Part shown: positions 1,666 through 46,197 of the stretch, piece after piece
Layout of the letters: each line of letters begins with the position of its first letter
How positions within the stretch are numbered: the stretch's first letter is position 1
Source: an uncultured virus (IMG/VR IMGVR_UViG_3300025137_000019)
Taxonomy: Duplodnaviria; Heunggongvirae; Uroviricota; Caudoviricetes
DNA: 54,265 bases
IMG/VR virus record: IMGVR_UViG_3300025137_000019
Reading direction: 5' to 3' (one strand)
The notes under the pieces: model-generated
Told to the model about the DNA's origin: nothing
What the model saw: only the letters and a program-made list of their open reading frames with translations
Databases searched by the model: none
Program-made: the position numbers and the translations under genes

Positions 1666-1690
1666 ATTTAAATTTAGTATATTAATATAT
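1641..1690 (+). promoter_or_regulatory. Palindrome TAAACTT-AAC-AAGTTTA plus TATATTAA element upstream of the gene at 1705
   Basis: Perfect 7-bp inverted repeat at 1641-1657; TATATTAA at 1678. The same layout recurs at 8573. Confidence 0.5.
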
Positions 1691-1704
1691 ATAATAAAGA
1701 TATT

Positions 1705-15300: not shown

Positions 15301-18300
15301 AAAGAAATGCTATATTAAATGAATTAGCAAATAAAGGAATATTTGTTGATCTCCAACAATTTTCTGATTGGATAGCAGATACTAACAACCTACCTGATGA
15401 GTTTATTGATATCACTAATGAAAGAGTTATTAATAAAGATAGTGTCTTGTATGAAGAGTACGTTGATTTGTTTATTGCTGCTGCAGATTTAGAAAGTAAA
15501 AAACCAGCTGGAGAAGAGTTAGATGCTAAACAATCTTTAGAGGCAAGAGTAGAAGAATTAAATAGTGAGAGAAATGATAAGATTAATGATCAACTAGAGT
15601 CTTTAGATTCTAAGCTTAAGTCTAACTATGGTAAAACAAGACAAGAAATTCTTGATGAAAAAGCAGAGTTTGATAAAGAATATAAAGAAAAAATAAATCA
15701 AAAAGAATCTAAAGAAGAAGAAAACAAACTTATAGCAAAATCAAGAGAGCAGTTAAAAACAAATAATGTACTTGAGATTCAAGCAATTTATGATTATGCT
15801 ATAGAAGAAGGTTATATTACGGAGGAGCAGTTTGAGAATGCTGTAAATACAATAGCTCAAAATGCTGGTAAACCTTTACAAAGAGTTTTAGAAGCTCGTA
15901 AAAATATTGATGTAAGTGATATAGAAGATGCTGAAGAAGCTAGGCAAATAGGTTCTACTCAAGCATTTAAGAAAGTTATAATTGATAGTATTTTAGAAGA
16001 TAAGGCTGAAGATATTGAAAAAGAAATACAAGACATAGGTGATGTTGATAGGCAACCACCAATGGTCCTAGAGTCTACAAAAGAATATAAAAGTTATGAA
16101 GAGATAGTGGCACAAATAAATGCAAAGTATGATGCTGCTATTGATGAGTTAAAAGGTAAGATTTCTAAAATGGATACTGAAGAATCAGTTGAGCAATTTT
16201 ATACTACATCTACACCATTTGATAATTTTGATCAAACTTCAAAAGATAAAATTACAGAGTTATTTGATGATTACCTTATAACAGATTTAAATGAAAATTT
16301 AGAGATTAAAGAAAATGATCCTGAGCAATATAGAAAATTAAGGGAAAGATGGTTAGAAAGACAATCAGAACTTATTAATGAATTAAATGCTGATGTTGTT
16401 GAGGCTAAGAGACAGAAGTTAGAAGAAATGTCTAAACCACCTGAGCTAAAGTTTTTACCATTTAAAGCTGATTCTAAAACTAAGACAGAAGTCCTGGGTA
16501 ATATATATGATAAGTTACAACGTATTTTAAATGATGGTGAATATGCCAAAGATGCTAAGAAACCTGAAGAAAAAACTCAGCTAACTGAAGAAGATATAGA
16601 AAATATTAACTCAGATTTACAAGCTATTGAAGGTTATATACAATCCCGTGCAGAATTATTTGCACCACAAACTGTTGCTGAAGAAGTTGTAAATAGAATT
16701 TCTGAAACAATAATTAATAGAAGAAATGAAGTTGTAGAAGTTACAGATGAAGAGGGTAATGTTATAGGTAGAAAGTTTGCCAATAGAGAAGATTCTGATC
16801 CATCACCTGAAAGAGTTACCGCAGTTGCTGAGGAAATTAAACAAGACCTAACAGGTGAACCTCAGTTTAAATATGACCCAATAGAAAAAACAGAAGATGG
16901 AGAGCCTGGTGCTATAGAAAGTGTGTATAATACTTATTTTCAAGATCCTGATATTACTAATGAAGAAGCTATTGATTTATTTGTAGCTAGGTTTAGAGAA
17001 ATGGCCTACAGAGAATATAAGAAAGTCTTTGGAAATGAAGCTAAGTTAAGTTCAATTGAGAGTGGTATCAGACAAGATTCTTCATTTAGTAATGTAGAAA
17101 GACTAATTAAAAAATATGTATTCAAACATTACTCAGATGCAGGAACTAATTCTGATGCTTTAATTAGAATGTTTTTAACTCCTAAATCAGAACAAGATGG
17201 TTCTGGATTTATAGATTTTACATATGACTCTGAAGTTGAAATAAAAGGTAATATGATTAAGGTATCAGATACTATGTCTGAAGAAGCCTATAATACTTTA
17301 TTTAACTCAGCATCAGGTATTATATCTAAATTACGTCAGGGAATTATTGATGGTAAATGGCAAATACTATCTGAAAATGTTTTACTGTTTGATGAAAACG
17401 CCAGAGAAAATGGCCTTACAGGAGAGATAGATTTACTTGCTATAGACACTGAAGGTAAAGTTAAGATTATAGATATTAAAACTGGTAACCCTGGTACATG
17501 GAAAATTTATGGTACAGGAGCACAGTATGATAAGGAAGCTTACTTCCGTGGTCAACAAAGTATTTATGCTGATTTATTTTATAATATGTCAGGTATAGAT
17601 GTGGATTCTATTGGTTTATTACCATTAGAAACTATTGTGAATTTAGATGGTTATATTGAATCTGTAAAAAAACCAAATCTAGTTCCTAAAGGTGAGGACA
17701 CTATTGAAATAGAAAAGATTGAGGATATTAGTAAGTATGGTCTTGAGAGAATTAGTCCAAATTTAAAAGAAATTAAAAGGGAAACTGAGAGAGGTGAGAG
17801 TAAAGTAGAAATAGGTATTCCACAAAGTGATCCAACAAAACTTACATTAGAAGAAAATCTTGGTAACATGATTACATATAATGGAAAAACAGGATTATTA
17901 TCTAAGATGGGTAATGGTACATTTGGTGTATTAGTTACATCTAAGGTTGATGATACATTATTAAATCTAACATTAGAATCAGTTCAAAATGAATTAGTTC
18001 TTGAAAAAGCTAGTGAATTTAAAAATGAAGAGTTAATATCTCAATTAGAGGATCAAGTTAAAAAACTACAAAAGAATATTGATGATAAAGGTGAGACCAA
18101 AGAAATGTACTCCATTAAATTTGATATGGAGAATGTTTATGATGGTGGTCTTAACATGATGGAATTAGGTATACAACCAGTTGCTATTATAGAAAGTGTT
18201 GGTCAACAAAGAATGGTTGGTGGTAAAATTATCAATGCTAAGTTTGATAACCCTGCAGAAACAATAGCTACTATAAATGGAATAAAGTATAATGTATTAA

Positions 18301-19670
18301 GAGACACGTCAGGAAACATTACTATATTAAATTATATGTCCAATGAAAAAGAAATCAAGGATGTAGATCAGGAAGCTGGTCAAGTATCAATGGAGATTGG
18401 TAAACTAAGACAAGAAGCTGCTGAACTTGAAGGTATAGAAAAAGACTTTGTATTAAAAAAGATATCTAAAAAACAGGTATATAAAACAGAGCTTGATAGA
18501 AAGAGGCAATCATTAGTTAATAATAATACAAAGGTATTTTTAAGGGGTAGAAATAATGAAGATCTTATATTTGCATTAAATAAATTACCCAACAGTCTTC
18601 AAAAGGTTACAGAAGGTCGTACTAAAGCAGATGAGATAATAGATTTAAAAGAAATAGGAAGGTTATCTTTATCACAAAGTATTTCTGAAGCAATAGATGA
18701 AGTTATGTCAAGAAATTATCCAGATGCAATGGATGTTTTAATTGATAAAGGTTTAGCTGGTGCAGCTGGTCAGAATGGTCAACAAATTATTGATTGGGCT
18801 ACAGAGACAATTAAAGAGTTAGAAGACTTAGGTTTTAGTGTAATTAATAGAGGAGATCTAGTTGATGATATATCTAGACAAATAGATGCTTTAAATTTAT
18901 TACTAGGAGATTTAGAATTAATTAATTTAAATAAAGATGGAAAAATCAGTAAAAGACAAAAAGGAAAAGTTAGAGACTACTTTGAAAGGGAAGAAATACA
19001 GGAAGGGTCTAGTGTATCTACGGATGCAGAGTCTGTCCAACCAGAGACAAAAAGAGTTCTTAGACCATCTGCAACCAAAACAGAACTTAAAAGAAAAATA
19101 GATTCTATTAGAAATAAGTTTGATAAAGAAGACAAAGCTACTTTAGAAAATATAACAAATAATGAGTTCATTGTTAATCTAAATGAAGCTACTAAATCTA
19201 ATATTGAAAACATATATGAAAAGGCCTTATTAGAAGCAGCTAAAGAGACTACTCCTTTAACAGTAGATGATGTAAAGTTGGCATATGAAACTAGGCTTGA
19301 AGAGTTAGAAACTAATATGGACTTAGCCAGTATAGAAAAAGGAATGATCTTAATGGACAAGTTAGATACTCCAAACTATTATATGGTTAAAAAAATCAAT
19401 AAAAATTCAGTAACTTTAGAGAATATCCAAACTCAAGAAAAGATGAATGTATCTGAAACAGATCTTACTGATTATGATAAATCAAATGATGAACAAACTC
19501 CTGTAGTAGAAACAACTGAAGAGCTAGTAGAAAGCTCAGAAGAATCTGTAGCTAATTTAAAAGAATTAGCTAAAAATGAAGAAAAACTATCTCAAGCAAA
19601 AGAAAATGCTAAAAAATCTACTAGAGAAGATAGGATGAATAAATTAAAAGATAACTCATTAAAATGTTAA
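12330..19670 (+). CDS. Giant putative ejection protein 2 (2446 aa): Gly-rich hydrophobic segment, coiled coils, PD-(D/E)XK nuclease-like domain
   Basis: GALIGGAVGFVEGGVGAIPGAAVGGALG near 13000-13115; GEIDLLAIDTEGKVKIIDIKTG...QQSIY near 17420-17570; ends LKC. Confidence 0.65.
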   Translation: MAEENVDKEFDKFADKTDFLGPARIEMELDAPELTPIFPNSVPDAFENNTYNTQRNTGGISPNYPPSAVKQNVVNTPDWGESLINATAAKINSLEDKNEYAKMYTFDSSPKGAFKARYKAYDQDIYNKIGFSPLLDNESWYNNNTTFGDDISRTMRTSALPMLGLGFLSPLNSYGNMLQGKSPFAQDADEAAEYDYYNQLSYSSKGGVGGFTNNLVLSAAYSMGILAEGAVEGALIGGAVGFVEGGVGAIPGAAVGGALGTLKSLYRLPGSIIKGVKAMGSMAKNLKAFGDVTKARQLFAASGRNAANFLNPASNLTAQLKATDNISGLAKSARTVGALWHDVKNINMGIAEGRLEGGFTQNQTYEELYNNYYSLYGIAPDEDMQESMMNQAKAAGWRNSLNNSMLVFYSNKIAFPSITRAGFLKGLPKLGVGTVVGNVGKEFQVVFNPAKKASEAVFTAEKIGFKNALKGFTKPKVWANNSINYFKANLVEGFQESAQDILNDATKEYYKETFYNPAARNMRYTTGVLGDAFNKQISAQGAETFASGFLMGTILQLPGKVKGGLNYSYNRFYKNRGNWEQHVKERGNDAQDVVDNLNNMYKNAHHFFDPRISNYSTQMLAAKMADNPEEVSEKELRDTSFTAFHESVMTSLSNGTYDMFTQNLSEYKNATPEELEEAWNLEKGQGRIALDNIDNQLDTAKTISKRFREARNKMKNQIDLAQFEVGSPEYEKARIYNEAYRVALSNLVFLQGSFDKNLQSIKDLGDEVSSLDAIKDLNFSNFSNLIVPERLSQEIAMLETEIESLKSNPQREYQANIQTEIKRMESKLSALTDFQNGQNGLIEGYMQNELLKGVMSKIMTEDSSLTQQDAEIKAIQELMDQYTEGKSEPFSIYKDSFKELLFSLADTPEKKARLQSQLDEKGGIDTMYSKLLDLHILNNETAGLTKFINLLSSPRDFYEHVDRNFSWMNELYDNKKEYVKDVVNQEISNIERNAILNELANKGIFVDLQQFSDWIADTNNLPDEFIDITNERVINKDSVLYEEYVDLFIAAADLESKKPAGEELDAKQSLEARVEELNSERNDKINDQLESLDSKLKSNYGKTRQEILDEKAEFDKEYKEKINQKESKEEENKLIAKSREQLKTNNVLEIQAIYDYAIEEGYITEEQFENAVNTIAQNAGKPLQRVLEARKNIDVSDIEDAEEARQIGSTQAFKKVIIDSILEDKAEDIEKEIQDIGDVDRQPPMVLESTKEYKSYEEIVAQINAKYDAAIDELKGKISKMDTEESVEQFYTTSTPFDNFDQTSKDKITELFDDYLITDLNENLEIKENDPEQYRKLRERWLERQSELINELNADVVEAKRQKLEEMSKPPELKFLPFKADSKTKTEVLGNIYDKLQRILNDGEYAKDAKKPEEKTQLTEEDIENINSDLQAIEGYIQSRAELFAPQTVAEEVVNRISETIINRRNEVVEVTDEEGNVIGRKFANREDSDPSPERVTAVAEEIKQDLTGEPQFKYDPIEKTEDGEPGAIESVYNTYFQDPDITNEEAIDLFVARFREMAYREYKKVFGNEAKLSSIESGIRQDSSFSNVERLIKKYVFKHYSDAGTNSDALIRMFLTPKSEQDGSGFIDFTYDSEVEIKGNMIKVSDTMSEEAYNTLFNSASGIISKLRQGIIDGKWQILSENVLLFDENARENGLTGEIDLLAIDTEGKVKIIDIKTGNPGTWKIYGTGAQYDKEAYFRGQQSIYADLFYNMSGIDVDSIGLLPLETIVNLDGYIESVKKPNLVPKGEDTIEIEKIEDISKYGLERISPNLKEIKRETERGESKVEIGIPQSDPTKLTLEENLGNMITYNGKTGLLSKMGNGTFGVLVTSKVDDTLLNLTLESVQNELVLEKASEFKNEELISQLEDQVKKLQKNIDDKGETKEMYSIKFDMENVYDGGLNMMELGIQPVAIIESVGQQRMVGGKIINAKFDNPAETIATINGIKYNVLRDTSGNITILNYMSNEKEIKDVDQEAGQVSMEIGKLRQEAAELEGIEKDFVLKKISKKQVYKTELDRKRQSLVNNNTKVFLRGRNNEDLIFALNKLPNSLQKVTEGRTKADEIIDLKEIGRLSLSQSISEAIDEVMSRNYPDAMDVLIDKGLAGAAGQNGQQIIDWATETIKELEDLGFSVINRGDLVDDISRQIDALNLLLGDLELINLNKDGKISKRQKGKVRDYFEREEIQEGSSVSTDAESVQPETKRVLRPSATKTELKRKIDSIRNKFDKEDKATLENITNNEFIVNLNEATKSNIENIYEKALLEAAKETTPLTVDDVKLAYETRLEELETNMDLASIEKGMILMDKLDTPNYYMVKKINKNSVTLENIQTQEKMNVSETDLTDYDKSNDEQTPVVETTEELVESSEESVANLKELAKNEEKLSQAKENAKKSTREDRMNKLKDNSLKC

Positions 19671-19673
19671 AAA

Positions 19674-22600
19674 ATGGCTTGTGCACTAAATCAAGAACAG
19701 GTATTAGATGTTTATGAAATCTTAATTGGTGATATACTTGAACTAGGTGTTGATACACCTTTTCAACTAGACACTGTTGTTAAAGATCTTTATAATGCAA
19801 TTAATGATAAAGAGAAAGCTGTGCTTTATGCTCAAGCAACTCCTGATATATTAAATTTAGTTTTACAAGATGATGAAGCTAATGAAAAGCTAGTAATGTC
19901 TGGTTTTGATTTTACTAATCTAGCTAAAATGAGAGTAGAGTTTAATAACTTAGATAATGTATCTAAATTTGTAGCTCAAAAAAAAAGAACTAAAAAAGAT
20001 GTTGATTCAGATATAGCAGGTATTAGTAAAGGTAATGCTGCTAAGCGTCCTAAAGATTCTGGTGATGAAAAAATCTTATGGTCATATAATGAGAATGAAG
20101 GAGCAAAGGTTGTATTTCCATTAGCAACAACATCTCAAATAGCATACTCTGAAAATCCAGAAGAGGTTTCAGAAGAAAAAAGAAATGAGATTGATCCAGA
20201 AAAGAAACTATTCTATGATGTTATTAAAGACATAGTATATATTTCTAGACAACAAGAAACAGATTCACAAGAAATTATTTACGGTGATACTTCTCTTGCT
20301 TTAGTGGCAAAAAAAGCTAGTGATGTAGACCCAATGCTGCTTACAACTGATGATAGAAACTTTTTAGAAGAAAACCCTGAGTCATCTGGTATTGTATCTA
20401 TTATATCTGACACGGAAGGTAAACCAGTTTTTTTTGATGAGGGTGGTAATGTTACTACTGAAGATAAAGGAAGAATAGTTTATAGCTATTTAAGAAGAGT
20501 TAACCTAGTAAAAGATAAATTACTGTTATCTAATAGAAGCAATAGACATTACAACCTGGTAGAACCAGAGGTTATTGTGTCTAGATTAGTAGAGCAAATG
20601 GAATCTCAACCTAAAGCTAAAAAAGTTTCTAAAAAATGGTTTGATGATAAGGTTAAGGAGATAAGAGATAAGCAAGAAAAAGAAATGAATGATTTGTATA
20701 CTCTTAGAAATCATATCATGGATACAGAACAGTCTGTTATATTACCCATTATAGGTGGTAGTTTTGGTATACCTACAAATAAAGCTAAGACAATGAGTTT
20801 AGCAGAGTCGGGTATTTCTTTACAGGATATAAAACAGTATCAGCAAATTACTACTGAAGGTAAAAATAAAGGTAAGCAGTTTATTATGTTGTCAATGGAA
20901 AGACCAGGTTTAACCGTTGATCAACAAATATTTTTACAAAGAGGTGATATAAACTCTGAATTAGCAGATAAAATTGCAGATGTATTAACTACAAGTGCTA
21001 CACTAAAAGGTAAGCAATTAACACCTGAAGATAGAAAAAACTATTTTGAAATTTTTATTAATAATGCTATTGGTAAAGGTTTTAAAACTAATAGAGATAG
21101 AATTACTGCTAAAGTTAGAGTAAGGGATAATGAAAAATCTTTAGTGGTAACTATAAAAGGAGAAGAGATTCCTCAAGATCAACTTTATACTGAAGAAACT
21201 AGAAATAAGGTTAAAGAGCATCTAATGAATGCTATTGACTTTAAAGGGGTAAGAACTTATCCTGCAAACGTACAGTTTAATAATAAGTATAAAAATGGTG
21301 ACTTTGATGATTATACAATAGACGGAGATAAAATTACAGTAGAGAGTAAAAACTATTTTAATTTTATAAAGCCTTTTATAAAAATAGAATATCAGGATAG
21401 TGATAATGCATATATGAATGGTCTAAACGCATATATGAACTATAGTATTCCAGAAGGGTTTAATCCTGAAGATTCTCAGTTCTATAAAGTTGGTAGACCT
21501 GTTACTAAAGATAAGACAAAGGTTCAAAAACGTTTTGAGAAAAAGAAAAATAAGAAAAAAGATAAAGATTCTTATAAGTCTGTAAAGGAAAAGAAAAGTA
21601 TACGCAACACTAATAAAGTTCAACCAGCTGCTGAGACCAAACCAAAAACTAAAAAAGAAGCTGTAGATAAAGCAGTTGGTAAGGGTGGTCTTTTAGCTGA
21701 TATACTTAACCAACCATCTAGAAATCTTAATGCAACTGTTAAGGCTAAATCTAAAAAGTTAAATAGAGATAAGACAATTAATGCATATTTAAATAATGTA
21801 TTTAGTAATAAAAAAGACCGTGATTCAGCTGAAACTTGGTGGTCTAACTCACCCTTAAGTAAACATATTGAACTAGAAAGAATTACTGAAATTGTAAATT
21901 CAGATGCTTATGCTACCTGGCAAGGATATGGTATTACACTATATGAAGGAGATGGTGGTACTGCTGTTGATTTATACCATGAGGCGTGGCATGGTTTCTC
22001 TCAATTATTTTTAAGTGTATCTGAGAAAACTTCATTATACAATAAGTTAATGGAGAATGATAGGTGGAAGAAAAAATCATTCTTAGAAATTGAAGAGGAT
22101 ATTGCTGAAGATTTTAGAAGATTTGCTAAATCAAAAGGTAAGGTTAAAAGACAAGGAGTTGTCGGTAGAATATTTAATAAGATTTATAATTTCTTAAGAG
22201 ATCTTTTTAAGGGTGTAACTAAAAAAGAAGTTATCACAAGACCTTCAGATATACCCGTTGTTAAAGAATTGTTTGATAAACTATATAGAGCATCAGAAAA
22301 TCCAGAGATTATTTCTAATCTAAAACCTTCTATGAACAATATATTGTTTACAGAACTTAATAGATTAAAAACCATTAATGAAAACTTTACTATTGATGAG
22401 TCTGTAAAAATATCTAGTGCAATGGATAATATTGTTTCTCATCTTATTAAGAACTTTAATAGAGATAATAATACTACCGCTGGAGCACTTAAAATCTTAA
22501 GAGATACAGATCAAAAGATTGCATTATATGATGATGCTTATGCCATGTTAGAGGCTGTAGCTAATCAGTATGAGGGCTTTATTACTCAGATCATAGAAGA

Positions 22601-25600
22601 TAATGAAAATGCTGCTAAACCTGACATAGCTTTATTACAGCAATATCAAGATAAATTTGACTTGATTAAAAAGGCCATGGCTAACTATGGAGATCCTGTA
22701 GAAACATTAGATGGAGATACTGTACAAGCAAATGTTATAAATTATCACTTAGAAAAATCTATTTATAAAGTACTAGGTGATGAGTATATAGAGGTGGAAG
22801 ATCCAAGTGATTTAAAAACAACAACGTTATTTAAAAAAGACCAGGGTAATAATATCTCAGCAAGAGAACTTGCAGGACAAGATACATTAATGCTATTAGC
22901 TAGTATAGTTAAAACAGAAAAAGATGAAGATGGTAATTTGGTAGATTCTTTAGATTATTTTGGTATACCGCAAATACAAAGTATTGATATAACATGGAAT
23001 AGATTAGCTAAAATACTAGAAGGTTCTTTTAATGATCAAGAATTGTATAATAGAATATTAGAAAACGCTGACAACTATCCTGAGCTAGAACAGCTTTCAA
23101 ATCTATTACCTAATCCAGGTGTAGATTATAGAGATTCAGCTGAGTTTGATTTAGAGACTAGTTTTTGGCAAGACTTTAAAAAACCAAGATTACCTTATAT
23201 TCAGTTAAACCTAAATACAGAAGGAGATACAGAAAAGGTATATGAGGCTAGAGTAATGAAGGCCAGTTTTGATACACGCCAGGTTATGAATGACTGGACT
23301 CAAAATTTTAAGATATCAGATAAATCAACTAACCCATATGTAAATGTAGATAAGCTAGGAAGATCTGTTTTAAATACTAAAAAAATTATAAAAGACTTTA
23401 GTATAAATGGTCAATTCAACTATAAAAAAGCTAATAGATTTTTAAAAGCTGTAGGAATACAGTTAGATATGACAAGCACAGCTCTTAAGAATATAGTTAA
23501 TAATAGAACTACACCTTTTAGTAATACTTTTGGAATTGATAGAATGTTCCAAATAGTAAGTCAAGTAGATAAGTTAGAAAAAACATATCCATCTGAAGCC
23601 TATCAATTTAAAATTAATCCTTTAAGATACTTTAGAGAAGGATTACCAAAACAACTTAGATTAAGTGAAGATAATAGTCAAGAAGTTAGTGGTAGAATTA
23701 AAGTCCTAGCAGAACTTCAAAATACATATTCAGATAAATTTTCAAACTTTAGTGTTCAAAGTGCTGAAGGTAATAGAGTATGGGAACATTTTCTTGATAA
23801 TACTATAACTAGAATGGTTACTTCTATTAACTATGCAGAAAACTGGCAAGAGTTAACAGGTCAAGAATTTGCTGATCCTGATCAACTCTTTAAGCACATG
23901 TATTGGATGGGTGAGGATAATAACACAATGACTCAATTTTCTGTATTATTAAAATCTATTTTTCATTTAGATGATTCAAATCCTGAAACTTATGGTAAGA
24001 AAAAAGATATAGGTAATAAATTAAAATTACAAAATGTATCAGGTACACAATTAATAGGTAAAAATACAATTGGATCTGCTACAGCTTCAATGGACGCAAC
24101 TAGTAAGTATCTTCAAGAGTTTCATACAATGTTGTTAAGTGGTGTAGAAGAATTTATGAGACATGCTTCTAAGAATACTGCACAAGGTTTATCTTTAACA
24201 GAAAAAATTCAAACCTATAATGGCAAAAGAGCTAATAATCTTTATGTAGACATTGAAGCATTTATGCCAGGAGCTTTTGGTACAATGAAAGCTAATGATA
24301 TACTGATGGGTTATATTGCAGGAGAAGGTAATAGAATCTTTAGATATAAATCAAACAAGAGTAAGTTTTCACAGTTTAAAGGTTACAATAGAACGGTTAA
24401 AAGAAAGGATGGTAAATCTGTAGACGCAGCAGAAGCATTCACTGCATTTGATGATGTATTATCAGCTGAAACACAAAGAAACTTATATAAAGAAATAGAT
24501 AATTCTATTGATGAAAATATAGGTGATTTTAATTTGATGGATGTTCTTAATGCTAATGAAGAATTAAGAGATAGTGTAGCTAGAGATTTAGATTTATACT
24601 TTGAAAAAGAATCTACAAATAATAATAACCGTTTAAGTAAAGCAAAATACTTAGATCAATCTCTCTTAGATAGAATAGATAGAGAGGGTTATCAATTAAC
24701 ACCTGATCAGCTTCAGGAAGTACTTTCTACTGCATATACGTATAACTCATGGATTCATAAGTTTGAAACAACCATATTAGCCTATGGTGATGTAGTACAA
24801 TATAACCATGCTAAAGAAGAGTTCCATAAACGTAATGCTGGTTTAGGATCGGGTGGTAGAAGTTTCCGCTCAGATTTAAGAGCTCAAGCTTTTATTAATG
24901 ATCAATCATTGTTTAAAAAGTATTATGCAGATAAAAAAGGTTATAGTGTAAAACCATATGACGGGACTCTTACTACTGGAATTCTTAAAGAGTATAAAAG
25001 AGATTCTATTATGTATGATGAGTACTTAAAGAGTTTGGAAGATGCTTATTATAATAAACTTAAAAATCGTACTAAAGCTAAGAAGCTTGCTAAAATTGCA
25101 ATGGGTGAGTATATGGGCATGGAAGTAGGTGATGGTCAAGGACATATTACTTTTGAGTCATATAGAATGCTAAAAAAACTTGAGAATAATTGGACTGATA
25201 ACCAAGAAAGATTATATAGAAAAATATCTTTAGGTGAGTCTATTAATATAGAAGACGTTGTAGAATATTTTCCACCCTATAAGCTTCAGTATTTTGGTAA
25301 CATGCAAACTACAGGACTTCCATTAACATCATTTCATAAATTCTCACTTGCACCAATAGTGCCAGGTGTTGCTAAGGAAAATACACCACTTGCAAAGATT
25401 CATGATAAAATGATGAAGGATCAAGTAGACTATGTAACATTTGAGTCAGGTTCTAAAGTAGGTCATATAGGATCAGGTGATGCATTTTTAAATCAAGATG
25501 GTACATTCAATGAAGATGCAACGTTTACTAAAAACGTAATATTTGCTGAGTATCTAAAAAATCAAACAGAAATAAATCCATCTTATAAGGGTAAATCAAT

Positions 25601-28600
25601 TTTCTCAACTCAAATGAGAAAGCTTATTTTAGAAGGGTTATATACACAGGGTGTCATAGATACTACTGATGAATCCAAGATAACGGAAGTAAAGGTTAAA
25701 AGATACCTAGACCATGTATCAGACTACACAGATCTATTAAAGTATGAGCTCTTAGAAGAAATTGGTTTTAAAGAAACAAGTAATGGAGAATTCGTAGCTA
25801 AAGATGCTAAAAGCAGAGGTAGACTTGCTAACCTAATAAGAACAAACTTAGAAAGAGAAGATGTACTAAGTGATGACTTAATAGAGTTTATAGATGTGTT
25901 TGAAAATGATGGTGAAATGCTACATGATATATCGTTTCATCCAGATGCTTCTAAGATTGAAAAAATATTACTTTCTGTAATTAACAAAAGAATAATAAAA
26001 CCTAAAGTAAAAGGTGAGCCTTTAGTTCAAGTTTCTTCCGCATTATATGAGAACCAACTAAATGTACCTGTCAATCTTAAAAATGCAAGTCAAGAAGATA
26101 TTAAAAAATATGTAGGGACAAATCTATTACCTACATATCATGCTGGTAAAGGTAAGACTAATGCAATGAAGGTAATGGTGGCCATGCAAAGTGATTATTA
26201 TAATTTGTTTAAGCTACCGTATGACTTAACTAAAAGAGAAAAAATAGAGGTTACTAATGAAGATGGTACTGTTAACGTAGAGGAAAGTATAAAAAGACTT
26301 AATGAAAAAATTAAGGATGATGCATGGCTAAACGGTAATGATGGTGCTAATAGAAAAGCAGTAACTATGGTAGGTGTTCGTATTCCTGTACAGGGACTAA
26401 ATTCTATGGAGTTCATGGAAGTCTATGAATTCTTACCCCCAGCTGCAGGTAACATAGTTGTAGTACCAGCAGAGATTGTAGCTAAGTCAGGTGGTGACTT
26501 TGATATTGATAAGCTCACAATATTTATGAGTAACTTAAATAAAAATGGTAGAGTCATAAGACCTCAGTTTTCTAACACAGCTGCTTTAAAGGAAGAAATG
26601 ACTAAAGAAGGTTTTAATCTTAATGAACTTAAGATTCAAAAAGCTGGTATTGAGAATGAAATGATTAATGACATTAGAGAAATCTTAGAAATGCCACATA
26701 ACTATGCAAGTCTTGTAACTCCTAATGGTACATTCTTGTTGAAGCAACTATCTGAAAAATTAGCTAGAGATGTAATGGAGTATGATCCGTTAGAAAATAG
26801 AATGTCTGATGAAAGAGGAGAGTCTATTTCACCTACTAGAATCTTTGAGGCAGGTTATAACTTATACAAGCATGAGTCAAATGCAGTTGGTAAAAGAACA
26901 TTAGGACTTGGTGCAATTGAAAATACATTTAATGTAATCATGAATGCTGCGGGTGCAAAGATGCCATCAGTAATTAATATACCGTTTGAAGGACAAAGAG
27001 ATGTAAGTCTTTATTTAAGACATAATAAGTTTGGTGATACAAATCAAATATCATTATCAGATCAATTTGATATAGATGGTGTAAATAAAGTTGCTGACGT
27101 TATATCACAAATGATGAATGGTTGGGTTGATGTTGAAAAAGATGCATGGGTATTCTTTATACAAGGTAACTATGAAGTAGCACCTCAGCTATTATATTTA
27201 ACAAAAGCAGGCGTACCAATAGAAGAAGCTGTTTATTTTGTTTCTAATCCATTAGTAAGAGAATATGTTGATGAACAACGTATTGCCAGATCTACATTTG
27301 CAGAGGTTTTAGGTAAAAAACCTGCTCAACCAACCTTTACTAAATATCAAGCAGCTAAGAATGTAATTAAAAATAACTTTGACTCAGATGTATTAGGTGC
27401 TAGAACTAAAAATAAAGTAAGACATGAGACTGGTGAAAAAATGATTGAGGACTTGCTTAGTAAAAGAAAAGATAAACACTTTAATTTAAAAGAACTTAAG
27501 AAAGTTGTAGAGTCGGATCCTACAGATATGAAAAAAGATAAGTTAGCACAGGCAATGTTCTTACATTATCTTTCAATAGAAAAACAAGTTGGTGGCCTAA
27601 CCGCATTAAAAATGTCTTCTAATCCTGACACTAGTACAAAGAGTACAATATCTGATGTAGAACAAACAGAAGCTAACTTGGATCAAATTAGAGAAGGTGA
27701 TCATGCTGAGTTACTAGAATCTTTTATGAATGATTCTGTTATTAGTTCCTTCTTTAATGGCCCACTAGCTCTTGCTTTAAGTAGACCTCTATTTAAATTA
27801 AGATTTCATAAGAACATTAGTGATTATTTAATAGTAAAGAGTGAAGCTATAAGAAATGATTTACAGTTTACATTTCCTGGGGGAACAACTGAAACGTTTT
27901 TAAATGTATTTAGAAATGACCTTGTAAGCTTTTTATTTCAAAATTCTCTAAGAAGATATAAACTAGAAGATACTTATATGTCTCATGCTATTAATAAAAG
28001 CATTCCTGTTAAACTTGTATCTAAGTTAGATAGAGGGGCTTTTGTTAAAGATGATATTTTATATGTAGATGAAAAAGAAATTAAAAGAGAATTTAAAACT
28101 AAATCTTGGGAGGTTGATTCTGAAGCGGAAAATAATTATGAGGACAAGAATCTGTATGCTCTAAATCCAAGTACGTTTATGCAGAATGGTGAATCTAACT
28201 ATAATGAATATTTAAAGTTTGTATTAGAGAGAGAAACATTAAGGCCATTATTTAGCTTTGCAGATGTTACAAAGACTCAAGAATTTGCAGAAGAATTAAA
28301 AAAGTCTGAAATAGAATTACCTGAAGAGTCCAATCAAAATCTAGCTAGATATACGTATGAAAGAATACTAGCTAATAAGGCGTTAGATAACACATATAAT
28401 TTCTATCATTTATTTAATAATCCAGAATACTCCATGGGTGTAAGATTATCAGAAATGCTTGTTAAATATCCTGATCTTGCTAGTAAGTTTGAAGTTCTTC
28501 AGAGAATGAGAAATAATACTAATAAAGAAGAGACTGTATTTAATATTGAAATTAATGATAAAGATTATAATAATGATAAGTCTAACCTTTACACTAAAAA

Positions 28601-29576
28601 TCTAGCTGATTTAGCTGACATATCTGTAATAAAATCTAATGATAATGAAGAAAATGCAAGAATTAGTGATTTCTTTAATAAGCTAAAAATGTTTGGCTTC
28701 TTGCAAAGTGGTATTAATAAGGAGAGCGTTAGTATAACTAATGTTTTAGATTATAGACCTTTTGTACAAGTACTTGAAACTGAATCTGATGCTTTTATAA
28801 AAGCTCTTGATACTGATGGTAACAAAATCTTAGATAACTTTTATAAATTATTTTTAGAGCAAAATGCAGCTACTAATAAAGATAAGCGTAGATATAAAGA
28901 TTACCTATCATTATTAAATTATAAGCAACCATCTAAGATTAAAGATATAGCTATACCAACAAGAAGTAGAACTCCTATTCTAGAGGATTCTCTTGATACT
29001 AGTGATTTAAATGTATCACCAGTAAGACAAGGCCTAAAAACAACTACTAAAAATAAAGTATTTACTTATAATGATAGATTTGCAAATAGTAATGTCTACT
29101 ATAACAATCTTATGCTTAACAATCAAGATGTAGTATTTATTCATAATACAACATTAAATGAATTAAAATCAGAATTTACTAAATCATTTGGTGGTCAAAC
29201 AGCGTTGGCTACAAACAGTAGTGGCATGGCTGTAAATTTCCCAACTGGTAATACTAAACCAGATGATGCTATGGAAGGTTTATCAGAAAGTCAAATAAAA
29301 GATATACAAGATTTATATGAAAGAAGAATAGCAGGTATCAAAGAACTAGTTGAAGGAGACACTAATATTGCATTTCCTGAAACAGGTATTGGTACCAGTT
29401 TACCTCAAGAATTATTTGTATATTTAAGTAAGAGGTTGTTTGAAGAATTTCAGTATGTTAATCCAGGATCTACAATGTATGATCAAGTTAATGATCTTAT
29501 AGGTAAGGCTCAAGGAATTACTGATCAAGAAATACTAAGTGCTCTACAATTAGAACAAGACCCTTTTAAATGTTAA
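19674..29576 (+). CDS. Virion-packaged single-subunit (double-psi beta-barrel) DNA-dependent RNA polymerase with zincin-like domain (3300 aa)
   Basis: KSGGDFDIDKL (DFDID at 26496-26510) preceded by RIPVQGLNSM and DGQG, matching the DFDID catalytic motif of crAss-like virion RNAPs such as phi14:2 gp66. YHEAWH...EEDIAE at 21978. Confidence 0.85.
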   Translation: MACALNQEQVLDVYEILIGDILELGVDTPFQLDTVVKDLYNAINDKEKAVLYAQATPDILNLVLQDDEANEKLVMSGFDFTNLAKMRVEFNNLDNVSKFVAQKKRTKKDVDSDIAGISKGNAAKRPKDSGDEKILWSYNENEGAKVVFPLATTSQIAYSENPEEVSEEKRNEIDPEKKLFYDVIKDIVYISRQQETDSQEIIYGDTSLALVAKKASDVDPMLLTTDDRNFLEENPESSGIVSIISDTEGKPVFFDEGGNVTTEDKGRIVYSYLRRVNLVKDKLLLSNRSNRHYNLVEPEVIVSRLVEQMESQPKAKKVSKKWFDDKVKEIRDKQEKEMNDLYTLRNHIMDTEQSVILPIIGGSFGIPTNKAKTMSLAESGISLQDIKQYQQITTEGKNKGKQFIMLSMERPGLTVDQQIFLQRGDINSELADKIADVLTTSATLKGKQLTPEDRKNYFEIFINNAIGKGFKTNRDRITAKVRVRDNEKSLVVTIKGEEIPQDQLYTEETRNKVKEHLMNAIDFKGVRTYPANVQFNNKYKNGDFDDYTIDGDKITVESKNYFNFIKPFIKIEYQDSDNAYMNGLNAYMNYSIPEGFNPEDSQFYKVGRPVTKDKTKVQKRFEKKKNKKKDKDSYKSVKEKKSIRNTNKVQPAAETKPKTKKEAVDKAVGKGGLLADILNQPSRNLNATVKAKSKKLNRDKTINAYLNNVFSNKKDRDSAETWWSNSPLSKHIELERITEIVNSDAYATWQGYGITLYEGDGGTAVDLYHEAWHGFSQLFLSVSEKTSLYNKLMENDRWKKKSFLEIEEDIAEDFRRFAKSKGKVKRQGVVGRIFNKIYNFLRDLFKGVTKKEVITRPSDIPVVKELFDKLYRASENPEIISNLKPSMNNILFTELNRLKTINENFTIDESVKISSAMDNIVSHLIKNFNRDNNTTAGALKILRDTDQKIALYDDAYAMLEAVANQYEGFITQIIEDNENAAKPDIALLQQYQDKFDLIKKAMANYGDPVETLDGDTVQANVINYHLEKSIYKVLGDEYIEVEDPSDLKTTTLFKKDQGNNISARELAGQDTLMLLASIVKTEKDEDGNLVDSLDYFGIPQIQSIDITWNRLAKILEGSFNDQELYNRILENADNYPELEQLSNLLPNPGVDYRDSAEFDLETSFWQDFKKPRLPYIQLNLNTEGDTEKVYEARVMKASFDTRQVMNDWTQNFKISDKSTNPYVNVDKLGRSVLNTKKIIKDFSINGQFNYKKANRFLKAVGIQLDMTSTALKNIVNNRTTPFSNTFGIDRMFQIVSQVDKLEKTYPSEAYQFKINPLRYFREGLPKQLRLSEDNSQEVSGRIKVLAELQNTYSDKFSNFSVQSAEGNRVWEHFLDNTITRMVTSINYAENWQELTGQEFADPDQLFKHMYWMGEDNNTMTQFSVLLKSIFHLDDSNPETYGKKKDIGNKLKLQNVSGTQLIGKNTIGSATASMDATSKYLQEFHTMLLSGVEEFMRHASKNTAQGLSLTEKIQTYNGKRANNLYVDIEAFMPGAFGTMKANDILMGYIAGEGNRIFRYKSNKSKFSQFKGYNRTVKRKDGKSVDAAEAFTAFDDVLSAETQRNLYKEIDNSIDENIGDFNLMDVLNANEELRDSVARDLDLYFEKESTNNNNRLSKAKYLDQSLLDRIDREGYQLTPDQLQEVLSTAYTYNSWIHKFETTILAYGDVVQYNHAKEEFHKRNAGLGSGGRSFRSDLRAQAFINDQSLFKKYYADKKGYSVKPYDGTLTTGILKEYKRDSIMYDEYLKSLEDAYYNKLKNRTKAKKLAKIAMGEYMGMEVGDGQGHITFESYRMLKKLENNWTDNQERLYRKISLGESINIEDVVEYFPPYKLQYFGNMQTTGLPLTSFHKFSLAPIVPGVAKENTPLAKIHDKMMKDQVDYVTFESGSKVGHIGSGDAFLNQDGTFNEDATFTKNVIFAEYLKNQTEINPSYKGKSIFSTQMRKLILEGLYTQGVIDTTDESKITEVKVKRYLDHVSDYTDLLKYELLEEIGFKETSNGEFVAKDAKSRGRLANLIRTNLEREDVLSDDLIEFIDVFENDGEMLHDISFHPDASKIEKILLSVINKRIIKPKVKGEPLVQVSSALYENQLNVPVNLKNASQEDIKKYVGTNLLPTYHAGKGKTNAMKVMVAMQSDYYNLFKLPYDLTKREKIEVTNEDGTVNVEESIKRLNEKIKDDAWLNGNDGANRKAVTMVGVRIPVQGLNSMEFMEVYEFLPPAAGNIVVVPAEIVAKSGGDFDIDKLTIFMSNLNKNGRVIRPQFSNTAALKEEMTKEGFNLNELKIQKAGIENEMINDIREILEMPHNYASLVTPNGTFLLKQLSEKLARDVMEYDPLENRMSDERGESISPTRIFEAGYNLYKHESNAVGKRTLGLGAIENTFNVIMNAAGAKMPSVINIPFEGQRDVSLYLRHNKFGDTNQISLSDQFDIDGVNKVADVISQMMNGWVDVEKDAWVFFIQGNYEVAPQLLYLTKAGVPIEEAVYFVSNPLVREYVDEQRIARSTFAEVLGKKPAQPTFTKYQAAKNVIKNNFDSDVLGARTKNKVRHETGEKMIEDLLSKRKDKHFNLKELKKVVESDPTDMKKDKLAQAMFLHYLSIEKQVGGLTALKMSSNPDTSTKSTISDVEQTEANLDQIREGDHAELLESFMNDSVISSFFNGPLALALSRPLFKLRFHKNISDYLIVKSEAIRNDLQFTFPGGTTETFLNVFRNDLVSFLFQNSLRRYKLEDTYMSHAINKSIPVKLVSKLDRGAFVKDDILYVDEKEIKREFKTKSWEVDSEAENNYEDKNLYALNPSTFMQNGESNYNEYLKFVLERETLRPLFSFADVTKTQEFAEELKKSEIELPEESNQNLARYTYERILANKALDNTYNFYHLFNNPEYSMGVRLSEMLVKYPDLASKFEVLQRMRNNTNKEETVFNIEINDKDYNNDKSNLYTKNLADLADISVIKSNDNEENARISDFFNKLKMFGFLQSGINKESVSITNVLDYRPFVQVLETESDAFIKALDTDGNKILDNFYKLFLEQNAATNKDKRRYKDYLSLLNYKQPSKIKDIAIPTRSRTPILEDSLDTSDLNVSPVRQGLKTTTKNKVFTYNDRFANSNVYYNNLMLNNQDVVFIHNTTLNELKSEFTKSFGGQTALATNSSGMAVNFPTGNTKPDDAMEGLSESQIKDIQDLYERRIAGIKELVEGDTNIAFPETGIGTSLPQELFVYLSKRLFEEFQYVNPGSTMYDQVNDLIGKAQGITDQEILSALQLEQDPFKC

Positions 29577-29579
29577 ACT

Positions 29580-32500
29580 ATGCTTTGTGACGTAAAAATA
29601 AATTCATTAGACTATCTTAAGAAAAAAGGTGTAACTGATGATGTAAGAAAAATTTTAGATAGAGAAGAATTTGATAAGGTTAATGACCAACTTACAGAAC
29701 TTGCTAGAATTAAATATGGTCTAGAAACTCAAGGGGATAAATTGTTTGGAGTAAATATATCTGAGCAGATTGACCCTAGAACATCTAGATATTGGAGAGA
29801 TGATCAATATAAGATTTATAGAGCAATCCCTAATGATACATTATTTGAAAAGTTAGATCAATTATATAAGCAAAGACAGAATACAGAAAGTTTAGATACT
29901 ATAAATTCAGATACACGTTTTTTTAAGTTTGACCCTTTTTTATATAACCAAGGTGTACCTATGGTTGATATTGATATAAATGACTTAAAAAATGCTAGAG
30001 TTAAGGAGAAGGTAGAAATTATAGCAGAAAAGCTAGCTGGTAGTATGAATGTACAATATGCAAATATTACTTCAGAAGCAGCTACTCAATTGCTAAAAAA
30101 TAGACCTATACCTTACAGAGGAGAACCTGGATTTTATTTTGCAGGTACAGTGTATACTGTGGGAGATAATGTTTCTTTATCAACTGTCATGCATGAATTT
30201 TCACATCCACTTCTCCAAGGGTTGAGAAGAGATAATGTAAAATTATTTAGGAGTCTTTATGATCAGTTCATGGCTACAGGAGAAGGTCTTGGTGTTAATG
30301 AATATGTAAAACAAGTATATCCTGAATTAAAAGAAGACTCTGATTTATTTAAAGAAGAAGTTCTTGCTTTTGGTTTACAATTAAAATCGGTAAATAAAAT
30401 AACAAATGAAGTTGAGACAGATGGTTTTAGCTCATTTATTAAAAGATTATTAGCAGGTATTAAAAAAATGCTAAGAAATATGTTCGGATCTAAAGTAAAG
30501 GTATCTAAGCTAGATGTAGATACTTCTTTGGATGAAATGGCAGATATGCTTATTGAAAAGGATTTTGAATTTAAAACTGCAGATGTAACAGAAGAAGATC
30601 TTGTTATGTATGCTAGAATGGTATCTGAAAGAGCTAATGAGTTAGCTAAAGGAACTACTGAAGGAAGTCTACAAGATATATTGGAGAAAACTTACGCTTC
30701 TAACTTAGATATATTAAGAAATGCTAAAAACTTTAGAGGTGATAAAAAAACAAAAAGTATTGTAAGAGAAACCTTATTTGAAAAAGGGACCTCTCAATTG
30801 TTACCTGGTGTTAGATCTTCACTATCAGCTTATGTAGATACTCAAGAGTTAAAAAACTTAGAGGATGATGATCTTATTGAAAATATATTAAACTCTGAAG
30901 AAGCTAAAATTAATGATATTCAAAATAAATCAGTAGCACTTATTAATAGCTTCGACACTATTAATAATATGAGTAAGAATATACTAAAAGATATTAATAA
31001 GATATCTAAAGATCAAACTTTAAATAGCAGACATACAATTGCTATGTTAGCTTTATATAAGAATACATCCCGTGCTTGGATGACATTACTAAAAGATATT
31101 GATAAAGAGATTACTTTAGAAAGTGGGGAGTTTATAGATACTAATAATCCATTTTATGCAACTCTTAATGAAATAGCAAATAATGTTACTAGAATTCAAA
31201 CTGGTGTTGCAGATGTACTAAAGAAAAATAATGTACAGTTTTTCGTAGAGATAACTAGTTATATGAATGAGTTTGTAAATAAAAAACTTAATTCTAATTT
31301 AGGGACCGCTTTAAAAAACGCATTTCCTGACTTACAAGAAAGAGAAAAAATTGTATTAGATATAGCTAATAAAGTTGAGCAGCAATCATTAACTCAAGAA
31401 GATATTCAAGGTCTTGTAGATAAAGGAGCCCCAGCACAGATTCTTAAAGAATTTTTAAAAGAATACAAGGACAATGTAGTTGATGAAGAAAAAATAAAAA
31501 ATGCATTAACTGGTAATGCCCATGATGTATCCTGGTTTAATAGATGGTTAGAAAGCTATAGTTCTTCTAATGATGTTGTAGTAGGTCCATTAGCAATGTT
31601 TATTCAAGATCAAAGAACTGAAGTTGAAAATGAAGTTTGGAAAAAGTCAATGGCTTTTAGAACTAAGCTAAAGGAGTTATTACCTAAAGTAAATTTTTCT
31701 AAGCTTAACACGGCACAGGTAAGAGATCTTGTAGGAGAAAAGGATACTATAATGTTTTTTGATAAAGAAACTGGTGAGCCAGCTGAAAAAGAAATATATA
31801 AATTTGTTAGTGAGTTTGGTAATGGGTATAGATATCAACAAGATATGTTACAGTACAACCTTGCAAAGGCCAAAGATGTTGGAGATCAAAACAAAATTGC
31901 TGAAGCACAACAAGCATTACAGGACTTTAACAATGACTATATGTGGCAAGAATATGTTCCAGAGTACTACTCTAGAAATAATATTTTTAAAGAATCTTCT
32001 GTGGGTAAATTAGCATATAGTGTAAGAAAAGAAAAACTAGCAGCTTTTAATAATCTTCAAAATCAATTTGATAATGAACTTGAAAGAGTTGAGAACTATG
32101 GTTCTATAAAAGCCGCATGGAGAGAGTATCAACAACTATCTTCACTTGAGTATGAAGACGGTACTCCTAAAATAGATGATGTAGAAAATGGTATTTACGA
32201 TAAAAGTATAGCTGAGGTATTAATAGAGTCAAAAAAAGGAACTCAGTTTAGAGAAATGGTTCCTATTGCAGGATCTTTGCAAACATCATATAATGAGTAT
32301 GTAACTTTGCTTGAATCTAGAGGTATAACTAGAGGTAGTGCTGAATTTAAAATGAAGCTTGCAGACTGGCAAAAACAAAACATTAAAATAAAATATACCG
32401 ATGAATATTGGGATTCTAGAAATGCAATTATAACAGAATTATCAGAATTACAATCACAAATAAATGAGACTACTAGTGATGAGTTTGATGTTTCTAATGC

Positions 32501-45735: not shown

Positions 45736-46197
45736 TTATTTTTGTTTGTAAAATCTACCTAAGATATTAGCATTTAGGTATTCATCTTTTTCTAGAACTT
45801 CATGTTGAAACTGATATTTAGTTTCTTGATATGTTAGTTCTGTTTTAGAATAGCATATTTTTAATATAATTCTATGTATAACTATTCCTTTTTTATGTGC
45901 ACTTTTTAAAACAGCGTTACTACTAAAATAATTTTCATAGTCCAGTTTAGTAACTATTTCATATTTTTTAGTTCTTTTATCCGTTATAGCTGCTAATGCT
46001 TTTTTGCCAAACTTTTTCTTTCTTTTAGAATAAAAGTTTTTCTTTCCAATATACTTTACATGTTTACCATCTATAACTGCCTGCATTTCATATATAAAAC
46101 CAACTGCACCATTAGGTATCATTTTGTCATTAAACTCTTTACCATTACAAAGCCATGAAGTTTTTATTGCATTTTTAATTCTAGTTTTTAAGTGCAT
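45736..46197 (-). CDS. GIY-YIG-like nuclease
   Basis: GFIY...KYIGKK, later E (YQE) and YLN motifs. Start codon uncertain. Confidence 0.65.
   Translation of the reverse strand: MHLKTRIKNAIKTSWLCNGKEFNDKMIPNGAVGFIYEMQAVIDGKHVKYIGKKNFYSKRKKKFGKKALAAITDKRTKKYEIVTKLDYENYFSSNAVLKSAHKKGIVIHRIILKICYSKTELTYQETKYQFQHEVLEKDEYLNANILGRFYKQK

Follow-up and report, generated by a model that had tools for sequence, protein, structure and literature searches.

Among the phages of the human gut, crassviruses are the most abundant, and the present analysis bears on how approximately 0.7 MDa of cargo protein is delivered through their narrow tail. In the cultured phages crAss001 (host Bacteroides intestinalis) and phi14:2 (host Cellulophaga baltica), a trio of cargo proteins was detected in virions by mass spectrometry (PMC10172136; 10.1101/2020.03.07.982082). 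The three crAss001 proteins, with masses of 262.5, 276.9 and 154.5 kDa, add up to about 694 kDa, and gp47, gp49 and gp50 were assigned to a cargo zone of the head, from which they must partly unfold to exit, given constrictions of <50 Å (PMC10172136). Fused 'polyprotein' forms of the three proteins occur in some crAss-like phages, and their cleavage was expected (10.1101/2020.03.07.982082); the organization of the crassvirus cargo was called unresolved in a 2026 paper on phage N4. Two other systems are relevant. In the Schitoviridae (N4-like phages), ejection proteins show cysteine (Cys) suppression, for which passage through the periplasm was the proposed cause (PMC11445570, the DEV paper). 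In cyanophage A4, a cryo-EM map of the pre-ejectosome contains a disulfide between gp27 Cys1715 and gp26 Cys5. A cleft of gp26 accommodates the C-terminal helix of gp27, and a chain reaction on ejection was suggested (PNAS 2025, PMC12002296). Here, we analyzed a 54,265-nt stretch of DNA (the window) from the uncultured virus IMGVR_UViG_3300025137_000019 (IMG/VR), in which three adjacent giant genes encode proteins of 2446, 3300 and 1983 amino acids (aa) whose only Cys lie at the ends facing one another. With a probability that we put at about 0.7, and arguing from sequence and analogy, end-to-end disulfides would chain the packed and injected proteins head to tail, in the order 2446-aa protein, RNA polymerase, 1983-aa protein.

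Facing cysteines in three giant proteins

The window represents 54 kb out of a 91-kb viral record with a completeness estimate of 77%. The features that bear on the Cys pattern are as follows:

12330..19670, plus strand: first chain protein, 2446 aa; its sole Cys is the last residue (...NSLKC; codon 19665-19667)
19674..29576, plus strand: virion RNA polymerase homologue, 3300 aa; its only Cys are Cys 3 and Cys 3300 (MAC..., ...DPFKC; codons 19680-19682 and 29571-29573)
29580..35531, plus strand: last chain protein, 1983 aa; its sole Cys is residue 3 (MLC...; codon 29586-29588)
19665..19682, plus strand: junction 1, reading TGT (Cys2446), TAA, AAA, ATG GCT TGT (polymerase Cys3)
29571..29588, plus strand: junction 2, reading TGT (Cys3300), TAA, ACT, ATG CTT TGT (Cys3 of the 1983-aa protein)
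8637..12326, plus strand: 1229-aa protein with 0 Cys, directly upstream of the chain and outside the Cys-paired set

An earlier reading of the window (the original prediction) had claimed that four Cys are the only ones in four giant proteins, that the outer ends of the chain have none and that both junctions carry the same DNA string. Counting bore out the first two claims, with 4 Cys in the 8,958 residues of the 1229-, 2446-, 3300- and 1983-aa proteins, all at two gene junctions, and none at the start of the 2446-aa protein (MAEENVDK) or the end of the 1983-aa protein (...SSRLGQ). The string AAATGTTAAAnnATGnnTTGTG is likewise present at both junctions, which are identical at 17/22 bases; the string itself follows from the residues, because K-C-stop and M-x-C are written in A+T-rich codons. 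As a baseline, Cys accounts for 46 of the 5,062 residues (0.91%) encoded by the window's 16 minus-strand open reading frames (ORFs). At this rate, 81 Cys would be expected in 8,958 residues, and the probability of finding four or fewer is 6e-30. Furthermore, four Cys placed randomly in the three proteins would land in the four given three-residue end windows with a probability of 5e-13. A chance origin of the Cys pattern is excluded. The three genes (12330-35531) lie in a single frame, with TAA and one codon (AAA or ACT) between them, an arrangement that looks incidental because relatives use all three frame offsets.

With regard to the identity of the proteins, tblastn relates the 3300-aa protein distantly (22-25% identity) to the virion RNA polymerases of Crassvirales, among them crAss001, phi14:2 and many uncultured members. 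This search matched 87 phage records with E values down to 3e-27, crAss001 included, and a second search with an 800-aa polymerase core as the query matched 128 records, phi14:2 included. Two features of this protein are of relevance:

26496..26510, plus strand: DFDID motif (residues 2275-2279), described as the catalytic metal-binding motif of crAss-like polymerases (preprint 10.1101/2020.03.07.982082)
29124..29573, plus strand: conserved C-terminal module of the polymerase ending in DPFKC (alignment A1)

The motif KSGGDFDIDKLTI or near variants of it were found in the longest ORF of 67 of the 75 related loci introduced below, the longest ORF of the other 8 being without DFDxD. The 3300-aa protein matched no Pfam and no PHROGs family and gave 0 matches in a phmmer search of the PDB; a PDB sequence search returned 0 matches for each of the three chain proteins, and 0 PHROGs families were assigned to seven plus-strand proteins. 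The 2446-aa protein occupies the position of crAss001 gp47 and phi14:2 gp078, a correspondence by position and size only. It had no match in a BLAST search whose subjects were five fused giant proteins, gp47 itself never having been compared, and only sub-threshold matches in Pfam (DUF6861, PD-(D/E)XK). The 1983-aa protein stands in the position of crAss001 gp49 and phi14:2 gp076. It carries an HExxH motif at residue 205 (HEFSH, in VMHEFSHPLL), and Pfam places a LysM domain at 1659-1697 (24.8 bits versus a cut-off of 20.9); the two hint at an action on the cell wall. On its sequence, the source phage is placed as a divergent environmental crAss-like phage.

Conservation of the pairs at split junctions, and their loss on fusion and gain on fission

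When IMG/VR was scanned with an 800-residue query from the polymerase core, 116 related stretches were obtained; the 80 that were kept comprise 75 distinct loci (core identity 36-100%), which fall into 49 clusters when grouped at 90% identity. All plus-strand ORFs of at least 100 aa were read in these loci, and ORFs separated by a gap of -60 to +120 nt were taken as adjacent (n=146 pairs). For a Cys pair to be counted, the first ORF had to have a Cys among its last 11 residues and the second ORF one among its first 8. Cys was found on both facing ends in 139 of the 146 pairs. Of the seven exceptions, one (L006) is a frameshift in the first chain protein, five (L054, L064, L067, L071 and L074) are boundaries between that protein and the preceding gene, and one (L011) is a boundary after the last chain protein. 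The five upstream boundaries are equivalent to that between the 1229-aa protein and the first chain protein of the window, and they lack Cys on either facing end (5/5 visible). Four more pairs were skipped owing to larger gaps, namely L018 and L043, with frameshifted genes whose short N-terminal pieces still start MAC and MVNC, and L031 and L061, with unrelated small ORFs beyond the chain. Every in-chain junction among the 75 loci has the pair, junction 1 in all the related loci where it is visible, and the six outside boundaries serve as negative controls. The conservation and co-occurrence in relatives on which the original prediction depended were thus found, both here and in the named phages described below. 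Overlooked internal Cys, which would have spoken against it, are few: the ORFs of at least 240 aa in these loci contain 277 terminal versus 22 internal Cys in 479,433 residues.

The nucleotide context of the pairs varied widely. Both Cys codons are used (TGT 239, TGC 43), the stop-to-start distance ranges from -10 to +36 nt, and the three frame offsets occur at 61/40/38 junctions. The N-side Cys is at position 3 (88 junctions), 4 (13), 5 (25), 6 (12) or 7 (1). On the C side, the Cys is the last residue at 59 junctions and has 1 (58 junctions), 2 (11), 3 (4), 4 (3), 5 (3) or 9 (1) residues after it at the others. The flanks differ by clade as well, as exemplified by DNSKTC/MACSLN, LNDLDC/MKITCA, NLEICE/MAITCA and ILKAIC/MLTCPI. 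Because spacing, frame and Cys codon vary, selection acts on the Cys residue at the protein level and not on the DNA. Loci obtained with crAss001, ZA and cr118_1 as queries (50, 19 and 1, respectively) were nearly all 87-100% identical to the query; 9 of these 70 were read, and they add little independent evidence.

Twenty named phages from three Crassvirales families (Steigviridae, Intestiviridae and Suoliviridae) together with Flavobacterium phage Fpv1 were also inspected, the records being those of crAss001, phi14:2, CrAssphage ZA, Fpv1, crAss002, DAC15, IAS virus, cr108_1, cr118_1, cr130_1, cr271_1, cr10_1, cr50_1, cr7_1, cr3_1, cr126_1, cr8_1, cr125_1, cr131_1 and cr11_1. Where the genes are split, which is the case for junction 1 in 11 records and for junction 2 in 14, both Cys were present at 25/25 junctions. 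The rule holds even in crAss001 and DAC15, where the gene of the first protein is on the other strand and away from the start of the polymerase: the first proteins end ...RCNS and ...ECLE, respectively, and the polymerases start MSKRC and MSKTC. In ZA and crAss002, the annotated polymerase start precedes an in-frame MSC by 21 and 32 codons; MSC was taken as the start on the basis of cr3_1, cr271_1, cr11_1 and four ZA relatives read out of 19 loci (L135, L147-L149). The annotated starts at 16878 in L079 (CrAssphage ZA) and at 15627 in L081 (crAss002) are probably too early. In cr10_1, the downstream gene is unannotated and the C-side Cys lies 10 residues before the end, and in IAS virus the polymerase is spread over two ORFs with ambiguous bases.

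Several of these phages carry natural fusions. A single ORF encodes both the first protein and the polymerase in the Suoliviridae and Fpv1, and both the polymerase and the last protein in the Intestiviridae. BLAST comparisons confirmed these fusions: residues 2077-2205 of crAss001 gp47 matched 1591-1714 of cr50_1, the phi14:2 polymerase matched from residue 1888 on, and gp49 matched the C-terminal part of the ZA and cr3_1 giant proteins. No Cys is present at 1137-3071 of cr50_1, the stretch spanning the fused junction, at 2241-3126 of ZA, around the polymerase/gp49-like fusion point, or past residue 2099 of cr3_1, the corresponding fusion point included; the 4401-aa fusion of Fpv1 has one Cys, at -1, beside the C-end. 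The fused forms each retain exactly one facing Cys pair. In particular, fusions of the first protein with the polymerase keep the Cys of the polymerase C-end and of the N-end of the next protein, and fusions of the polymerase with the last protein keep the other pair. By elimination, this fixes the pairing order: the C-end of the first protein goes with the N-end of the polymerase, and the C-end of the polymerase with the N-end of the last protein. Only two-protein fusions were seen; a three-protein fusion was not found among the named phages read.

The reverse situation is represented by six loci with extra proteins within the chain, of 655 aa in L032 and of 242-261 aa in L033, L043, L055, L056 and L063. 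Each of them has Cys 3 and a last-residue Cys, with none between. In its C-terminal 120 aa, the linker of L033 shows homology to the C-end of the L034 polymerase (34% identity, E 4e-17), which itself has no Cys other than Cys 5 and Cys 4015. For the N-terminal half of this linker, Smith-Waterman scores against the L034 polymerase and the L036 downstream protein were 43 and 48, within those of shuffles (mean 39-40, max 59-60), so that the match is confined to the C-terminal part. As judged from these genes, the pair is gained on gene fission and absent on fusion. A different kind of break is found where the polymerase gene is interrupted by inserted DNA, namely in L083 (cr108_1; 21797-22088), L166 (cr131_1; 21122-21917), L126 and L133. 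The ORF ends flanking these interruptions have no Cys, and the cr131_1 insert holds a 242-aa Cys-rich ORF. These interruptions are probably self-splicing introns, and the lack of Cys at the breaks is expected if they are spliced at the RNA level.

Some further observations were made on the gut records. The annotated giant late genes of L155 (cr130_1), L160 (cr7_1), L165 (cr125_1) and L166 (cr131_1) hold 53-148 in-frame stops under table 11, and therefore these Suoliviridae read a stop codon as a residue. Internal Cys are also more numerous in them, with 26 and 27 in the cr130_1 and cr131_1 fusions, 13 in cr7_1 and 7 in cr125_1. In p-crAssphage-like genomes (L079, 5984-8371; L147, L148), a protein encoded two genes upstream of the chain ends ...KQSCR, and its counterpart ORF in L149 ends earlier, without Cys. 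In crAss002, gp30 (L081, 4932-6605) has Cys at 550/557. Neither the ...KQSCR protein nor crAss002 gp30 is followed by a protein with a facing Cys.

The proposed disulfide chain and its alternatives

The terminal-Cys rule is, as a statement about sequences, solid, and it is conserved throughout the order. We strongly infer that the link is a disulfide, because the two Cys are the only universally conserved residues and the gp27-gp26 bond solved in cyanophage A4 offers an analogy. The head-to-tail linkage put forward in the original prediction is partly supported, by the conserved terminal pairs and the gene-order pairing deduced from the fused forms, and the bond itself is proposed by analogy.

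According to the proposed mechanism, the three proteins would be cargo that is packed in the head and then injected, purged of Cys as are other injected phage proteins, with one thiol retained 0-10 residues from each end facing a neighbour in the chain. Disulfides formed in the particle would join the C-end Cys of each protein to the N-end Cys of its successor. The product would be a linear thread, 7,729 residues long and arranged head to tail in gene order, from which only stubs of a few residues branch off, and gene fusion (a peptide bond) and disulfide would be interchangeable in evolution. More speculatively, and as a hypothesis, the chain could exit via the tail as one thread, N end first, and cytoplasmic reduction could separate the proteins. 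Taken to its full extent, the proposal would be that the polymerase cargo of the Crassvirales is a disulfide-stitched thread, of three to five proteins in phages other than this one, that leaves the head N end first and in gene order, that reduction on arrival in the cytoplasm both releases and activates the polymerase, and that the LysM/HExxH protein may stay at the cell wall; this extended version we consider tentative and rather doubtful. Recombinant phi14:2 polymerase was purified and assayed in dithiothreitol, and therefore the in vitro form is the reduced, unlinked enzyme.

Several points weigh against such a chain. The head fills in the reducing cytoplasm, and gut crassviruses inhabit an anoxic habitat. 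In the accessible text on crAss001, the cargo proteins are without clear density in the map, and reduced and non-reduced mass spectrometry is given per protein only (PMC10172136). The cyanophage A4 proteins have no sequence similarity to those of the window, which makes the precedent an analogy. Furthermore, a Cys-purged background is not universal, as gut families have internal Cys, e.g., 7-15 in the polymerase fusions of Intestiviridae and 26 and 27 in the Suoliviridae fusions of cr130_1 and cr131_1. No thioredoxin gene was found in the 91-kb record, nor among the 23 minus-strand ORFs, and therefore reduction would depend on the host. In other genomes, thioredoxin genes are annotated near the cargo block of several gut crassviruses (L079, 31325-32604; L083, 33040-33309; L164, 30030-30299).

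The sequences next to the Cys were examined for docking modules. The polymerase C-end (alignment A1) has 16 invariant columns in its last 70 residues, with C150 invariant in 24/24 sequences, and the N-end of the 1983-aa protein (alignment A3) forms a conserved module of ~105 aa in which M1 and C3 are invariant (24/24). The first 110 residues of the polymerase are a conserved module too. The first protein has a charged tail whose sequence varies until L..NSKxC is reached. A single plug-and-socket module repeated at both junctions was rejected, since hhalign gave probabilities of 0.4% for the N-terminal alignments (A5 versus A3) and 2.4% for the C-terminal ones (alignment A4 versus A1). The modules of the two junctions are unrelated, and specific pairing would therefore be allowed. 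Co-folding of the junction 2 ends (A3 1-115 with A1 40-150), a check proposed along with the original prediction, gave ipSAE values of 0.33, 0.30 and 0.36, compared with 0.02, 0.00 and 0.00 in the controls. The mark applied was reached by 116/157 solved complexes and by 2/215 mismatched pairs; among those that reached it, no more than 18 of the 157 solved complexes had values of ≤0.60, as did both mismatches. The runs agreed in at least 53% of contacts, with a partner pLDDT of at least 58. The model lends weak support to docking at junction 2 and yielded no contacts, and Cys-Cys proximity was not seen, which also counts against the chain.

The alternative that survives best keeps the disulfides and gives them another purpose, i.e., stapling the packed pre-ejection assembly so as to fix 1:1:1 co-packaging and position, with no threading as one chain and with links that may break or be irrelevant at ejection. 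This is possible, if on the unlikely side, and its share is contained in the probability given above and not added to it, since the bond is common to both and only the purpose differs. In line with a staple, the cyanophage A4 bond 'further stabilizes' the C-terminal helix docked in the cleft of the next protein inside the head (PMC12002296), and docking modules with weak co-fold support adjoin junction 2. A staple could, however, sit anywhere on the interface, yet the Cys always lie close to the chain end and are replaceable by a peptide bond, which a linear thread fits better.

It is improbable that the terminal Cys have some other partner (a protein of the head, portal or tail, a target in the host, a covalent modification, or none if they act as free redox-sensing thiols), with the pairing at junctions as a by-product of each such end requiring one. 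The structural proteins of crAss001 do have many inter-subunit disulfides (PMC10172136), and the near-C-end Cys of the ...KQSCR protein lies outside the triad and has no facing partner. However, the outer chain ends never have Cys, either in the window or at 6/6 outside boundaries in relatives; fusion removes both Cys together, with no substitute, and fission creates exactly two, and two-protein arrangements retain exactly one facing pair. About as improbable is the idea that no chemical link exists and that the Cys belong to a non-covalent docking surface or a packaging signal, kept for packing or another reason. The conserved modules next to the Cys and the weak co-fold support would need no bond, but packing alone is hard to credit for an invariant Cys amid varying neighbours in Cys-purged proteins across three families, and the solved analogue in cyanophage A4 is bonded (PMC12002296).

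That the facing thiolates share a metal ion instead, either two-coordinate or with extra ligands, the second option named in the original prediction, is very unlikely. Acidic residues do occur near the Cys in the clade of the window (DPFKC with MxC[ED]V), but only the Cys is kept across clades, no third or fourth ligand is retained, the flanks vary freely (ILKAIC/MLTCPI, NEKICK/MRIDRC, SFSCM/MSCGNIK, ALRCNS/MSKRC), and the sole solved case of this signature, that of cyanophage A4, is a disulfide (PMC12002296). Finally, a nucleotide-level signal (coupled termination and restart, or stop read-through to one polyprotein) or chance can be practically discounted: the similarity of the two window junctions and their common frame would suit a DNA-level motif or read-through, but these are ruled out by the variable spacing, frame and codon in relatives and by the opposite-strand first gene of crAss001 and DAC15, and chance by the probabilities given above. 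A split intein or autoprocessing polyprotein was also rejected, as there was no Hint or intein Pfam match in the three proteins. Splicing would also call for a catalytic Cys precisely at the residue that follows the splice site, and the place of the Cys is not fixed (positions 3-7 on the N side, 0-9 residues from the C-end).

Returning to the disulfide chain, a thiol pair at every protein junction provides a concrete hypothesis for the order, stoichiometry and release of the cargo. If it is true, a 'peptide bond or disulfide' rule would make fission and fusion of ejected-protein genes neutral, and the rule may reach other podophages, with cyanophage A4 as a second, unrelated case. The terminal-Cys rule would explain why the cargo genes are fused in some lineages and split in others, and it could identify the members and order of ejected protein sets in uncultured phages. 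It also flags mis-annotated starts, e.g., those of CrAssphage ZA (21 codons) and crAss002 (32 codons).

Gene neighbourhood and comparison with known systems

The chain genes close a longer run of giant genes in the window:

1705-5361, 5372-8575, 8637-12326, 12330-19670, 19674-29576 and 29580-35531, plus strand: run of giant genes

The polymerase gene has giant cargo genes on both sides and is located downstream of tail genes, in a block adjoining the replication module. This module, on the minus strand after the giant genes, encodes a DNA polymerase (PHROG 1252, E 2e-138), a PD-(D/E)XK nuclease, a DnaB-like helicase, a Toprim protein, an AAA_24 protein, UDG, a DUF2201 metallopeptidase/VWA protein and a GIY-YIG endonuclease. 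Within the module, 45736-46197 (minus strand) codes for a GIY-YIG homing endonuclease that is SegE-like (E 6e-20). The 1067-aa protein encoded at 5372-8575 (plus strand) is the only Cys-bearing member of the plus-strand block. Eight of its 10 Cys are arranged in four close pairs (723/725, 742/744, 754/756 and 775/778) that resemble a metal-binding cluster, and it had no Pfam or PHROGs match.

In our search of the Crassvirales literature, no title or abstract describing terminal Cys in crassvirus cargo was found. The word 'cysteine' occurs 0 times in the accessible texts of PMC10172136 and 10.1101/2020.03.07.982082, and 'disulfide' occurs 0 times in that of the latter and refers to tail and portal proteins only in that of the former. 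The inter-subunit disulfides reported for crAss001 are those of the tail barrel, the fibre hubs and the portal-vertex protein gp57 (PMC10172136). They show that inter-protein bonds exist in crassvirus particles, but in retained structural subunits and not in injected cargo. In the fused crAss-like forms, the same proteins are covalently continuous in the same order, but via a peptide bond. The window resembles the Schitoviridae in having a giant injected polymerase and partners that are nearly Cys-free. In contrast to that family, which has no conserved Cys and whose polymerase is one chain of ~3,400-3,500 aa, it keeps four invariant terminal Cys.

The closest likeness in design is to the gp27/gp26 pair of cyanophage A4. 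In the record of the Anabaena phage A-4L, two adjacent giant ejection proteins (1717 and 1114 aa) have no Cys other than Cys1715 and Cys5, respectively, so that the sole Cys of the upstream protein lies 2 residues from the C-end and that of the downstream protein at position 5, the same signature as in the window. Unlike the window, cyanophage A4, a podophage of another family (Saffermanviridae), has one link between two proteins instead of a chain of three to five, and no RNA polymerase; in the accessible text of the A4 paper, a general rule is not stated and fusion or fission is not discussed (PMC12002296). A BLASTP comparison of A-4L gp26-gp29 with seven window proteins revealed no homology (best E 0.30). 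Cyanophage A4 is an independent case of the same design, and the resemblance is functional and not one of family membership. Homology of the polymerase links the window to crAss001 and phi14:2. Its polymerase is only 22-25% identical to theirs, and its proteins are larger; however, it has in common with crAss001 gp47-gp50-gp49 and phi14:2 gp078-gp077-gp076 a homologous polymerase, the same three-protein set and the same terminal-Cys rule.

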